Assembly: GCA_951406725.2 (NCBI GenBank)
Contig: OX597821.1
Span: forward strand, 14,880,001-14,944,000
DNA: 64,000 bases
Direction: 5' to 3'
Origin: Octopus vulgaris
Taxonomy: Eukaryota
In this document: positions 4,262-63,542 of the stretch, one piece after another
Layout: each line of letters opens with the position of its first letter
Numbering within the stretch: the stretch's first letter is position 1
Program-made: the position numbers and the translations under genes
The notes under the pieces: generated by a model
What the model saw: only the letters and a program-made list of their open reading frames with translations
What the model was told of the DNA's origin: nothing
The model's database searches: none

Positions 4262-4440
4262 ATACATATGAGAGGGATGACCAGTATGTGGACAACCGTT
4301 ACGCTAGAAGTAGATCCACTATGGTCTTATCACTAAGAAATGTTCTCAAGAAAAATTTAGCAAACATCAGAACGTTAAACTGATGTTAAATTGATGTTAA
4401 TTAAATTGATATCCAATTTCTCACCCTCAATTTAAATTAC
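4262..4440. mobile_element. TA-flanked short element, same family as 47823-48215
   Basis: 'gggatgaccagtatgtggacaaccgttacgctagaagtagatccactatggtcttatcactaag' aligns to 47843-47905; 'aaattgat...caatttctcaccctc' aligns to 48180-48205. Confidence 0.75.
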
Positions 4441-5451
4441 ATATATATATATATATATATATATATATATATATATATATAATCTAATAACTGCCATAGA
4501 TGTATTTATGTGCTACTATTAGTTTCATGTGCTGTGATTGTTTTATAACACGCCTGGTGTCCCAGTACAATCACTAGACACCGACCACATGGCATAACAA
4601 ACCAAAATTTAAAATCAAATATTCACAGATGAAAGAGTTAATGTTTTCATTTCGTTATGCCACACACACACACACACACACACACACACAAACACACACA
4701 CACACACACACACACACACACACACACACACATACACACATTCTGAGTGTCTTGGTGTTTGTGTTTGTATTTGTACTACTGCATCACTTGACAATCAATT
4801 TTGGCTAATTTACGTCCCCATAGCTTAGAGGCTCGGCAAAAGAGACTGATAGAATAAGTACCACGCTTTTAAGAAGGAAATATGCATTGGTATCGATTTG
4901 TTCGAACAACCCTTCAAAGGTGTCTCAGTAGAGCTGCAGTCGATTGACAGATACAAGTATAAGATTAATAAATCACAATATATAATGAAATACACATTAA
5001 AATGTGTCTACTTTAGAAAATAAATACACAGTACTTATATTATGACATTAAAAAAATTAATCATCAAAAAGAGGAGATATTAAAAATCATTAAATTTTTA
5101 GGTGACCAGTTCTGAAATCAGCAGACCGATTAATTTACAAAGTAGGTAAAAAAAAAAAAAAGAACATACTATTGATTTTTAACTAGTTTAACTGCTGTAT
5201 TTGCGTTTAGAGCTGGAGTTCCAAATTGCGTTCAATTTTGATTTTAATTTCTTATGTTATCTATTTATTTTATATAAAACTGTATTGTTCTTATCGTTTC
5301 GTTTAATCTATTTCTCAATTTTCATATGGTCCCAGGTTCCGTCCCACTATATGAGATTTTAGAGAAAGTGTTTGCTGCTGTAGCCCTGAGGCGACCAATA
5401 CCTTGTGAGTGGATTTCGTTAACGGGAACTAAAAGAAGCCCATCATGTGCT

Positions 5452-5525
5452 TATCTATCTATCTATCTATCTATCTATCTATCTATCTATCTATCTATCT
5501 ATCTATCTATCTATCTATCTATCCA
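5452..5525. repeat. (TATC)n microsatellite after a SINE A fragment (5325-5450)
   Basis: Direct reading. Confidence 0.95.
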
Positions 5526-6136
5526 TCTCTTTCTCTCTGTATATATGTCTGTATGTATACAAGCCCACACAAGTAAATGTTCGTACGTAGAATATAAACT
5601 TACTTATACGTAAGCAAAGGCAGATGTAAATTTTTCTACGTTATGCCAACTCCTGCTAAATTACTTTGTGTATATATACACATGAAAATATATACATATA
5701 TACCGCACACAAAAATGCTTATATTTATATATATACACTCGTACACAGACACATATACATAGATAGACTTATATACATAAAAAATCTTTAATGAGAAGTG
5801 GTTCACATAAACGAGGCAAATTTCGTGTATATATCTATAGAGTGATTGGGATATATTTACTATGAGGCGCTTGATTGAAATGAGTCAATAACGCAAGAAA
5901 CAACAGACAAACCATAAACATAAAATTTTAAATCAAATATACGCAAATGAAAGCCTACATATGTCAATAGCAATTATTATTGCAGTGAAGTGATGCTTTA
6001 CGTTCAGAAGTTTCAACATAGAATGAGGTATTTATTATTCTCAAAAGTTTTTTTAAAAAATGAAAAAAAAGGTAGAGGGAAGATTGTATTCGTAAACAGT
6101 TTGAGTGCTTGTTTCTCTGGAGAGAATGATGTAGAT

Positions 6137-6179
6137 GCCTCTGATGAGACCCCAATAAGGTTCGAAAATCGATTAAGGT
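6137..6179 (+). ncRNA. Minimal type-I hammerhead ribozyme motif
   Basis: GCCT-CTGATGA-GACCccaataaGGTTC-GAAA-ATCGAT-TA-AGGT: canonical core, stem I GCCT/AGGT, palindromic stem III AATCGATT. Confidence 0.7.
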
Positions 6180-7607
6180 TGTTCATAATTTTATCAGTCT
6201 GCTGAGAAATGGCTAAAATTTGCTGCTTATAATTATACCATATGTTACATACATACATTCATATATGCATACATGCATACATACATACATACATAGTTTT
6301 TCTATTTAGTGTTATTTCACTATTTTATATAAAACCGTATAGATAGATGGATACATAGATAGATAGATAGATAGATAGGCACATGATGGGCTTCTTTCAG
6401 TTCCCGTTAACGAAATACATACATACATACATACATACATACATACATACATACATGCATACATAATGGTGGCAGTTGTGATCAGTTCAATAATCGGACG
6501 TTTGTAATTACTGCTTATATGAAGGCAACATATTTCTACACAAATGTTATAAACATTACATATATTGCAGCATATCTATATTAACGATATATCTTAACAC
6601 ATTTATGTAAACACAGCATTCTAACGATACACAAACAAAGAAATAAGTCAACATTGTAAAACAGTTTACAAAAAAGATCAACACCACTCAACGTGTACGT
6701 TTAAATGCAATTGTAGCATTAAAAACAACCAGCAAGAAAAGATTACCCAAGTTGTGAACAACGTAAAATTTTATTCTGACAAAATTTTGTCGAACCTTTT
6801 AAGGAAGATCGTTGTCTATTTTTGAAAAAAAAAAAAAAAAATATCAGTGAATAAACAACAAATTTCATAGCCAAACGTGTAAGTCACCTTCGACCAAATC
6901 ATAACTACAATCACTGCATACAATGAACCTACGGTGCTAAAGATTTATATGAAGCATAAATACAATCTGAACCCCAAAATTTCGGTTTTATGCAAAGGCT
7001 AAAATATTTGCGGAACTCAAAACATCCCAAATTAGATTTTCCCCCTAAAACATTTAAATCATTAGATGTAAGTTGATACATCTAAAGGAAGCAGTTGATT
7101 CTAAGCCAGCCATTGAAGATAACCATCCCATTTCCAATGATGGATAGACGCAATGGTCAGCTAAATCTAGCAGTAAGCAACACACCAACAATGTGAGCTG
7201 AATTCCATACCTGTACTGTACAAACAGAACACCAAAAACTTGTGAACGCCTTACTAGACTACTTAGTCTAGGATAGTGTTTCAACAATTTGAATGACAAG
7301 CCACACAACACCAACATAAGTAAAACACCCCAGTAAATTAGAATTAGAAGCAATGAACGAAATAGCAAGCAAATATCTGAAGGTTACACAGTCCAGAGGT
7401 ATGAAAGCAACATACGAAACCGTTAACCTTTTGATTTATGTCACAGCAATTATATTAGTGAGGGTCTTTGCATGTACGTGAGACATGGTGCTTCCACATT
7501 TTTGAGCCTGTAACCAACATTGGCACTTGATATCTTGCTCTGTCTTGTCTCTGGATCATGTCAGAAGGATGGACAAGGTTTGTGAGGTGTTATGCAAGCC
7601 TTATTGG

Positions 7608-60993: not shown

Positions 60994-61391
60994 TCTCTTT
61001 TACTCTTTTGCTTGTTTCAGTCATTTGACTGCGTCCATGCTGGAGCACCACCTTTAGTCGAGCAAATCGACCCCAGGACTTATTCTTTGTAAGCCTAGTA
61101 CTTATTCTATCGGTCTCTTTTGCTGAACCGCTAAGTTACGGGGACGTAAACACACCAGCATCGGTTGTCAAGCAATGCTAGGGGAACAAACACAGACACA
61201 CAAACACACACACATACATATATATATACGACAGGCTTCTTTCAGTTTCCGTCTACCAAATCCACTCACAGGGCTTTGGTCGGCCCGATGCTATAGTAGA
61301 AGACATTTGCCCAAGGTGCCATGCAGTAGGACTTAACCCAGAACCATGTGGTTGGTAAGCAAGCTAGTTACTACACAGCTACTCCTGCGCT
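60994..61391 (-). mobile_element. SINE family A
   Basis: Reverse match to 12218-12627. Confidence 0.95.
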
Positions 61392-62332
61392 GCCCTTGGA
61401 AGGGATTCTCATATCTACTACATATAACTAATATATTATTTTAAAACATCCAAAGGAAATAACCCATTCGCTCCTGAAAGGGATCCTTATATATATAGGC
61501 AAGGGAAATAACCCATTCATGTTCGAAAATATTTTGTATAAATCAAACTGAGTGTGCTTAATTCTTACTATTTAAACTATTTGAGTTATTTTCGCAATTC
61601 ATCCAGTATAACGCTTAAACAAGTAAATAATATTTTCCTAAACAATAGATCCACTTATTTTGGTTAGTGACTTTTTCACGCATATAGCAACACTAGCGCT
61701 GCTGGGGGTAATATTCTCTGCAAACGCACAAAAGCCTTTTTCAGAGTTATTTACTTTGCATTGATATCTCATATGTGATTAGCCTCTTATTATGCAACAT
61801 ACTTCACGATTTTCGTATTCAAACCTTATTAGTATTTCCTCCTAAGTTCTATATACTCTGGGAACGTATTAAAGCCCTTTTCAGGGCTACACACTTGGTA
61901 TTGTTGTTACTGGATTAGCGAAACAATTATGAGAACGGAACCAAGGGATAAGCGCCGCTTTCCCGGGAATAATCGAGTACGTCAGCGAGTATATATATAT
62001 ATATATATATATATATAACAGTTGAAACACTCCTGTCACAACCTCGGACCTCGAAGACTGCCTTAATACAAGAAAGTACACTAGTCCCTTAATATTTGAT
62101 ATTCAATATTTCATCTATTCAATAAGGCAATCAATACTTCATTTCATTTTACTATATATGCTATTTATATTATATATTCTATATTCTACATTAATATTGT
62201 AAAGAATATAAATTAAAAAAAAAAACAGACAGATTTGGAATTCCTTTGAATATATATATATATATATATATATATATATATATATATATATATATATATA
62301 TATATATATACATACATATATAAAATACACGT

Positions 62333-63200
62333 ATTAATCAAAGGACGCATTAAAGTGTCTACCCGCTAGAAATAAGAGTTAAAACCCTCATTTGTACCGC
62401 GTAAAAATATTTACACTGAAAATAACATTATATGCGTGCGAGCGAACCGAAAAAAATCTCTCGCATATAGCTTTAAGCTATATATTTAATGGAACAGGTA
62501 TATATGTGGACAGGTTTGTGGTCTGATACAAAGATCTTACCTTCCTTAGCAATTTTAAACCCTTTGAAACATCTTCCCAGTCCGCCACGTTGAAATCTGT
62601 TCGCGTCCTTAAATGTAATTTTAATTCTATAGCTATATAATGATGTTTTAGGCTTGCAACCACCTATATTGATATTTTTGTTATTATTGACTATTTGTAT
62701 TCCCTTCGATAGTAATAACAATATCAATATCTATATAAATATTCGCTTCTGAATATTTTTGCTGCTGATTAGTCCTTTTCACACTGAGGCTGTCCACAAT
62801 TTGGCGCTAAGCAATTAAGGTCAGATTTCAACGTGGTGGACTGGGAAGATGTTTCAAAGGGTTAAGATGTGCTGAAGAAGATAAGACTAGAAACCGGTCC
62901 ACATATATACCTGTTCCATTAAATATATAGCTTTATGCTATATAGGTATGTGAGAGATCTTTTCGGTTCGCTCGCCCCTATACTGTTGAATCGTTTATTT
63001 TCAGTGTAAATATTTTTGGTAGTCCAAATGAGGGTTTTAATTCTAATTTCTAGCGGTTAGACACTTTAATATGTCCTTTGATTAATGTAATTTTAATTCT
63101 ATAGCCATATAATGCTGATTTAGGCCTGCAACGAACTACATTAATATTGTTGTTCAATATCAATATCTATATAAATATTCGCTTCTGAACATTTTTGATA
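62333..63200 (+). mobile_element. TA-flanked element with structure revcomp(A)-B-x-A-B (inverted plus direct pseudo-LTRs)
   Basis: 62333-62599 is inverted at 62822-63086; 62613-62760 is directly repeated at 63084-63197. Confidence 0.88.
62867..62904 (+). ncRNA. Minimal hammerhead-like motif
   Basis: ATGTG-CTGAAGAA-gataagacta-GAAA-CCGG-TC-CACAT; perfect stem I, palindromic ACCGGT, GUC site; stem II eroded. Confidence 0.65.
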
Positions 63201-63372
63201 TTATATATATATATATATATATATATATATATATATATATATATATATATATATATATATATATATGAGAAAGTTGGTGTGTGAAAGCACGTGGTTGAAT
63301 ATATAGAAAATGGTAAAAAGTGGAAAAAATACAGAAGGTTTGTTTTAAAATAGTGTACATTTAAACACAAGC

Positions 63373-63542
63373 GAAAACTACCTTTAACAGGCAATTTTTA
63401 CATGCTAGAAGAAGCAGTCAATATGACAAAATCCACATTTAAGAGCAATTTTCGAAGGGAATGAAAACTAAAAACTTTTACCTATGTTATTTTTTGACTG
63501 CTTCTTCTAACGTGTAAAAATTACCTGTTAAAGGTAGTTTTC
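63373..63542. repeat. Fold-back with ~55 bp arms carrying the TTCTAG-hairpin motif
   Basis: 'gaaaactacctttaacaggcaatttttacatgctagaagaagcagtcaaa' is inverted at 63493-63542. Confidence 0.88.

Follow-up and report, generated by a model that had tools for sequence, protein, structure and literature searches.

How the proteins of Penelope-like elements (PLEs) pick the internal site at which copying starts, and what lets retrozymes borrow these proteins, are open questions. Both bear on a stretch of 64,000 nucleotides of the Octopus vulgaris genome (contig OX597821.1, positions 14,880,001 to 14,944,000; hereafter the window). Several repeat families of the window share the word TTCTAGC, or a near form of it, followed after a few nucleotides by a hairpin. 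We put a probability of about one half on the reading that word and hairpin together mark, in the RNA, the place where a Penelope-type reverse transcriptase (RT) supplied in trans would dock and start copying non-autonomous, retrozyme-like partners. All statistics given below concern the window, which has 36% GC and is rich in (TA)n, other microsatellites and dispersed repeats, together with public contigs.

The word and the hairpin that follows it

Fourteen sites of the word, belonging to about eight repeat families, were found in the window. Nine of them had been listed in an earlier note on this DNA, and all nine are present, on the strand given there and no more than about 6 nt from where they had been placed: counted by the first T of the 7-mer, they are 48076, 24419, 53565, 63048 and 63505 on the plus strand and 4309, 49942, 50640 and 24130 on the minus strand. 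The additional five copies are 25002 (+), 47878 (-), 24375 (-), 62371 (-) and 63410 (-). TTCTAGC is exact in 9 of the 14, the remainder reading TTTTAGC (two sites), TTCTAGT, TTCTGGC and TTCTAAC. When the sites are aligned on the word, a consensus of about 16 nt emerges, RSWNCTAYTTCTAGCR, which is longer than the word first described. A purine at -8 and at +7 and T at letters 1, 2 and 4 of the 7-mer are invariant in all 14; the letter after AG is C in 13, and the TAG never varies to CAG. The left half of the word can fold upon the right half (CUA-YUUC-UAG). In an alignment of 15 rows, its three inner pairs are preserved in 12, 14 and 12, and five G-U pairs occur among the variants.

A close IUPAC form of the 16-nt word has 8 matches against 0.06 expected, for a pattern drawn from these same sites. 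With a weight matrix run over 127,970 positions, 13 of the 14 sites take ranks 1 to 13 and the fourteenth rank 15, and when each family is left out of its own matrix, the 13 sites tested still rank between 1 and 35. Exact TTCTAGC, counted separately on both strands, also occurs 14 times in the window; (TA)5 lies within 90 nt downstream of 6 of these copies and upstream of 1, the figure for random positions being 9.6%. The description of the word-bearing elements as TA-associated holds for most sites, but not for 24130, 49942, 63410 and 63505, which have no TA run alongside.

The hairpin begins at a nearly fixed offset from the word: +5 in families F1, F4, F5 and F7, +6 in F3 and F6, and +3 or +4 in F2 and F8. 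Scored as a hairpin anchored between +3 and +6, it is strong (p 0.001-0.009) at 47878, 48076, 24419, 63410, 63505 and 49942, moderate (p 0.04-0.05) at 50640, 53565 and 25002, and weak (p 0.16-0.35) at 4309 (F1), 24130 (F6) and at both F4 sites, 63048 and 62371. The layout of a word followed by a variable hairpin thus stands, as strong or moderate, in 9 of the 13 sites scored and is weak in the other 4; a pooled p would be inflated, because the sites were partly picked for their hairpins. F3 and F6 have a 5-bp stem at identical coordinates, in which 2 of the 5 pairs are changed on both sides. A covariance model (CM), which had been suggested as a check, could be built, and its matches are limited to the 14 known sites, of which 13 had served to train it.

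Weaker relatives of the word also occur. Two weak matches without a hairpin, at 11896 (+) and 45851 (-), have in common a downstream TTTCCTTTTTAGTTATTTT stretch and are perhaps another small family, and a weak TTCTAGC site at 8670 (-) lies 270 nt from a 160-bp palindrome (8938-9097) that is centred on a CTCGCTTTCGCTCG word and stands upstream of it. Another small TA-flanked family, at 48130-48215 (-), 4381-4461 and 24201-24330, perhaps belongs to the motif class in a looser form; its copy at 48168 reads CTCTAGC, has a hairpin from +11 and is picked up by neither the matrix nor the CM.

The elements around the word

Eight of the sites form outward-facing pairs in four insertions. The F1 insertion at 47830-48124 is a fold-back with 90% palindromy and motifs on both strands (47872-47878, minus; 48076-48082, plus), their hairpins being at 47844-47866 and 48088-48110. 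F2, which is related to F1, forms a 96% palindromic fold-back at 24332-24462, with TTTTAGC at 24369-24375 (-) and 24419-24425 (+) and a hairpin from +3. The F5 fold-back at 63373-63542 has motifs at 63404-63410 (-) and 63505-63511 (+), 10-bp hairpins from +5 and no adjoining (TA)n, and the fourth pair, at 62333-63086, belongs to F4. In these four insertions, arms end shortly beyond the hairpin, at +31, +32, +32, +37 and +42 after the word; the last two values include AT-only letters that may be target DNA. The remaining sites are unpaired. An F1 copy on the minus strand (4262-4375) has its motif at 4303-4309, then a decayed hairpin and (TA)n. F6 and F7 are minus-strand stubs: the former (24088-24190; motif 24124-24130, hairpin 24103-24117) adjoins a Helitron-type 3' end, and the latter (50590-50717; TTCTAGT 50634-50640, hairpin 50608-50628) runs into (TA)n. 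The F8 site, with TTCTGGC at 49936-49942 and its hairpin, occupies 49903-49942 (-), also with no adjoining (TA)n.

Two families carry a hammerhead ribozyme upstream of the word on the same strand. The F3 unit (53341-53612, +), supported by public contigs, consists of a type I hammerhead (53422-53473, cut site after 53468), a second word TCGGTTCG (53479-53486, 86 nt before the motif), TTCTAGC (53565-53571), a hairpin (53578-53592) and (TA)n. The hammerhead, seen in the scan and in the contigs, is decayed in the window copy, while other copies, compared at 80% likeness in public contigs (raw DNA runs added no depth over F3), have the canonical letters 53428 T (703 of 770 in depth), 53454 A (634 of 699), 53468 C and 53470 A. 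In these copies stem III is palindromic, and stem II has changed on both sides of one pair, 53438/53447. Hammerhead and word stand on one contig in 6 of 8 X1 pieces among the matches listed (there are 15,762 further ones), and among the rows listed (40 of 101) no difference falls within 53565-53571. A head-to-tail joint, 53591 to 53341, is found in 2 contigs, and the unit is thus a tandem one; it spans 53341 to about 53592, or at least 251 bp. A 5'-truncated F3 copy at 24952-25086 (+) has its motif at 25002-25008 and hairpin at 25015-25029 and continues to (TA)n at 25087.

The F4 insertion (62333-63197, both strands) lies between (TA)n runs and combines an inverted 5'-truncated arm (62333-62599) with a forward partial tandem of period 472 bp, in which 62612-62761 recurs at 63084-63197. 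On the plus strand it has a minimal type I hammerhead (62867-62904, cut site after 62899) with a palindromic CCGG stem III, then TCGGTTCG (62963-62970, 85 nt before the motif) and TTCTAGC with its weak hairpin (63048-63075); the inverted arm has TTCTAGC with a weak hairpin at 62345-62371 (-) and TCGGTTCG at 62443-62450, 79 nt before the motif. From the cut to the word, on the same strand, there are 97 nt in F3 and 149 nt in F4. The three copies of TCGGTTCG in F3 and F4 are the only ones in the window, all 79-86 nt before the word, and none appears in 100 shuffles; BLAST between F3 and F4 finds no similarity, despite this common word.

A hammerhead score of at least 12 within 260 nt upstream is reached at 2 of the 14 sites, in 1.75% of random windows (n=400) and in none of 100 viral control matches. 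A strict hammerhead scan finds one site; the others come from relaxed scans, and because these were needed, the hammerhead calls depend on scoring made for this analysis. The same-strand arrangement had been noted for three elements, and it holds for those at 53295 and 62333. At 50591 the motif at 50640 does have a good hammerhead 238 nt upstream (50871-50919, -, with a G3-C8 core), but that piece ends at a (TA)6 run (50718-50729) which lies between hammerhead and word, and the case may be one of two insertions. This core, at 50912 (-), and the U3-A8 cores at 15817 (-) and 16247 (+), in a fold-back at about 15750-16325, are covarying catalytic cores, and stem III is palindromic in both types.

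The families had been called unrelated, which is overstated. F1, F2 and F7 have hairpin letters in common, and F5 and F7 a GGTAAA stretch about 75 nt upstream of the word; in F4 and F8, GCTGATTAG recurs at about 283-301 nt upstream. Such further common words point to divergent relatives of one lineage rather than to unrelated elements, and this is how the word-bearing families are best read.

The architecture around the word is ordinary PLE debris. For PLE insertions an outward-facing layout has been described, with units of a pseudo-LTR (long terminal repeat), an inverted 5'-truncated copy and a tail (PMC8557442). The window elements resemble the endonuclease-positive PLE units of that description in their outward 3' ends, partial tandems, (TA)n targets and terminal-repeat hammerhead; they differ in having no linked open reading frame (ORF), and the available description contains no word and hairpin common to several families (PMC8557442). 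Non-LTR retrozymes consist of short monomers in tandem, non-coding and with a single type I hammerhead each, for which an origin from PLE terminal repeats was proposed (PMC7229834; bioRxiv 10.64898/2026.07.22.740005). F3 (at least 251 bp) and F4 (472 bp), which are known here from DNA alone, are like them as hammerhead monomers, and the accessible parts of the same two sources mention no cis signal by which the mobilising enzyme would know them. The minimal hammerheads of PLEs were described as having one more base ahead of stem II and a palindromic stem III, and as occurring in opposite-strand pairs 100-700 bp apart (PMC4209133); the ribozyme traits are alike, but that system, in the part available, covers the ribozyme only and not a downstream word.

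Compared with these systems, F3 and F4, out of about 8 families, have a sense-strand type I (minimal) hammerhead within the repeat unit, and the same two have a head-to-tail joint or partial tandem of a short monomer; four insertions have an adjacent inverted 5'-truncated copy with 3' ends outward. Minimal hammerheads, (TA)n targets, partial tandems and truncated copies in inverted orientation have all been published as marks of PLEs and retrozymes, and F3 and F4 very probably originate from PLEs. Most other sites are short stubs without a hammerhead, whose PLE origin is drawn from the layout and is less probable.

A proposed docking and start signal, and other readings of the word

On the reading that we prefer, a tandem or read-through transcript would be made and may be cut by the hammerhead as a dimer. 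A PLE protein would then read the word, its halves pairing as CUA-YUUC-UAG, together with the adjacent hairpin, nick AT-rich or (TA)n DNA and start cDNA synthesis slightly beyond the hairpin, at a constant distance from it, and priming off both target strands would leave two outward-facing ends. Families could drift freely save at this signal, as the tails of short interspersed elements (SINEs) do for the proteins of long interspersed elements (LINEs), word and hairpin being kept because non-autonomous copies would need a signal for docking and start. A precedent is the Poseidon PAc protein of Anolis, which nicks AT-rich DNA, extends both strands and begins reverse transcription internally in its RNA, where a stem-loop lies about 85-92 nt beyond the cut of the hammerhead (PMC11167929). 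That stem-loop is AC-rich and lies within the ORF, whereas the hairpin described here is found 110-170 nt past the cut, is non-coding and has a fixed word before it (PMC11167929). The earlier note had proposed a conserved RNA element, a fixed word with a hairpin kept at the level of structure, for RT recognition or 3'-end processing. Such an element at the 3' end of hammerhead-bearing retroelements fits the same-strand hammerhead of two families, the outward-facing pairs and the near-fixed end distance, and RT recognition would be its most plausible use.

Several results weigh against a docking signal. An unbiased scan of 8-mers over 76 non-redundant TA flanks gave a best p of 4e-5, compared with a median of 3e-5 in 40 null sets, with TCTAGC words at ranks 2, 4 and 7 of 33,073. 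Within one window the short word alone is not significant, so it is the longer word, together with the layout and the offset of the hairpin, that carries the case, and the 7-mer by itself does not. Covariation among the few rows is not significant (205 of 500 shuffles in one test, 65 of 500 in another), RNAalifold gives no consensus structure for the site set, and the word's own stem is without any two-sided change. F3 and F7 continue further after the word (to about +40, +78 and +44), and in F4 another, later end lies at about +143, so that optional tails fit while a strict ruler is weakened. No scored hammerhead is found within 260 nt upstream of 12 of the 14 sites, most of which are short stubs. 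An autonomous element carrying the word was not found within the window. The only GIY-YIG-bearing PLE remnant of the window (2026-3095, -; frame 2448-3095, Pfam E 8e-5; hammerhead 2026-2070) and its solo end copy at 62048-62121 (+) have no clear motif after the hammerhead, and several other hammerhead families of the window are without the word; the signal therefore belongs to one lineage at most.

Outside this genome, pattern matches comprise 5 viral, 25 metagenome and 9 GTDB ones, among which there are no relatives with hammerhead or hairpin, besides 123 viral two-word loci. After dropping duplicates and flanks shorter than 260 nt, no hammerhead accompanies any of 16 metagenome, 7 GTDB and 100 viral matches, and the best CM E value is 0.093. 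We read these matches as chance; the collections are poor in animal DNA, and negatives from them therefore say little on spread. GIY-YIG relatives amount to six proteins without context and one weak viral locus. Three contigs of Saprospiraceae metagenome-assembled genomes (L031:244-316, L038:3001-3069, L039:3001-3068) have in common an intergenic repeat, similar in all three, that ends with a run of TA; it is unrelated to the signal discussed here.

It is also conceivable, if rather unlikely, that the word is a terminal-repeat signal read by the host, either an internal promoter or the splice acceptor of a PLE-type retained intron, and that its nearness to the end is incidental. YTTYTAG does resemble an acceptor, and the GGTAAA stretch of F5 and F7, in these two families only, is a GT-rich donor candidate. 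Terminal repeats of PLEs are also known to contain a promoter and a 75-bp intron (PMC2377424). Against this, no donor distance is common across the families, and the hairpin offset is left unexplained. The near-constant C after AG and the TAG that is never replaced by CAG are also tighter constraints than splicing requires.

About as doubtful is the possibility that the word acts as DNA. As a near-palindrome, TGCTA-N4-TAGCA, it could be bound by a dimeric GIY-YIG endonuclease in the tail and promote insertion beside existing copies. The quasi-palindromic form and the tandems agree with this, as does the statement in PMC11167929 that the Penelope endonuclease of D. virilis needed the tail for recognition and that a dimer is predicted for the anole protein. 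Against a DNA site stand the variable left half beside a conserved right half and YTTC centre, and the one-sided changes, which on the strand of the hammerhead give G-U pairs; the adjacent hairpin would have no obvious role in double-stranded DNA.

Quite unlikely, too, is that most stubs are not PLE-derived at all. The other strand reads hairpin, 4-7 nt and CTAG, which could be a subterminal signal of a Helitron-like element or another DNA transposon, the fold-backs then being miniature inverted-repeat transposable elements. The reverse strand does give a hairpin followed by GCTAG, four insertions have inverted ends, and most stubs have no hammerhead. However, the element body comes after CTAG, opposite to the Helitron-type ends of the window (24058-24085), the outermost bases differ between families, arm lengths range between 65 and 270 bp, there are tandems and arms without a partner, and F3 and F4 have hammerheads. 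In a Helitron 3' terminus, the body is followed by the hairpin and then by CTRR as the last bases before the target T; the sites do not have this form, for on the reverse strand the body stands after CTAG, continuing AAR.

The layout had also been compared, as an analogy, with the U7 Sm site and its stem-loop. Taken literally, the word would be a variant site for an Sm/Lsm ring with a 3' stem-loop, capping the RNA 3' end as in small nuclear RNAs (snRNAs) and fungal telomerase RNA, and the RT would start at the protected end. A retroelement lineage related to telomerase, with its retrozyme parasites, would then package and end its RNA in a U7-like manner: the 5' end would come from the hammerhead, and the start of reverse transcription would be set by the hairpin that the ring protects. 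We regard this as very improbable. The layout does agree with the snRNP code (that of small nuclear ribonucleoproteins), in which an Sm site has an adjacent 3' stem-loop (PMC6954390): the word is U-rich, the terminal hairpin is close, and UCUAG, the end of the U7 site AAUUUGUCUAG, is found in 10 of 14 sites (10.1101/2023.08.19.553944). PLE RTs are moreover sister to telomerase RTs (PMC8557442). The sequence of the site itself is not there: neither the nonamer PuAUUUNUGPu (10.1101/857334) nor AAUUUGUCUAG is matched in any of the 14, and the consensus is missed at three positions, the first base being U in 13 sites, the second U being C in 6 and G being A in 13. Rfam gives no U7 or other snRNA match, nor any hammerhead family, at E<=1 for the window and E<=10 for two sub-regions; the matches it does return, mostly to microsatellite- or palindrome-driven miRNA models, are all under the gathering score.

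Finally, that a short AT-rich word was chosen after the fact in a repeat-rich window is highly improbable, for although the unbiased 8-mer scan stays within its null and 5 of the 14 exact TTCTAGC copies lie outside the site set (3 of them without an anchored hairpin), the leave-family-out ranks, a second word at fixed spacing in two families and the fixed hairpin offset speak against it.

Neighbouring repeats and the meaning of the proposed signal

The PLE remnant belongs to a decayed element at 2448-3508 (-), in which a Cys-rich linker, which we take to be Neptune-like, and the GIY-YIG domain are followed by the hammerhead. Hammerhead-like elements without TTCTAGC adjoin (TA)n at 16326-16568, 27589-27865, 54596-54703, 17060-17120 and 6132-6185, and several such elements end in TTCG or CCCG/CCC before TA. 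A non-autonomous family of Helitron type, ending in a hairpin and CTAG, is represented at 52838-53223, 22627-23028, 23703-24085 and 51248-51361; it is very deep in public contigs and has a head-to-tail joint, 53210 to 52839. At 55961-58456 (-) there is a broken LINE with fragments of AP-endonuclease and RT, the 3' end of which adjoins a long TA array. A high-copy SINE-like family of 410 bp with an internal CA/TA tract occurs at 12212-12629 and in about a dozen further copies, and a 184-bp unit, single and tandem, is listed with it (37251-37667, 39513-39930, 25587-25825, 35249-35485). As to whether the word-bearing elements could be tRNA-derived SINEs, whose mark is a tRNA-like head with A and B boxes, ARAGORN finds no tRNA gene in the window; it would miss decayed heads, and most copies of these elements are 5'-truncated.

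The type of element is already known, while a word and hairpin common to several families is apparently not in print: the word with a hairpin at fixed offset was not found in the literature searched, several supplements lying outside its coverage. The word is absent from the supplements covered of PMC9115989 (files 1-4 and 8, and the transcriptome file in part), PMC8967140 and PMC11167929, and other supplements could describe the motif; those of PMC4209133, file 1 aside, have one word match, which is unrelated. In the Naiad/Chlamys/Hydra file of PMC8557442, as judged from snippets, none of 20 TTCTAGC copies is seen directly before the end of a record.

The only in vitro PLE system has narrowed the internal start signal to a region of 172 nt (PMC11167929). 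A 16-nt word with its hairpin, kept across divergent families, is a candidate for a small, mutable signal, by which template selection in PLEs becomes directly testable. It also offers a handle for finding the autonomous partner and for classifying many repeats that are still without a label.

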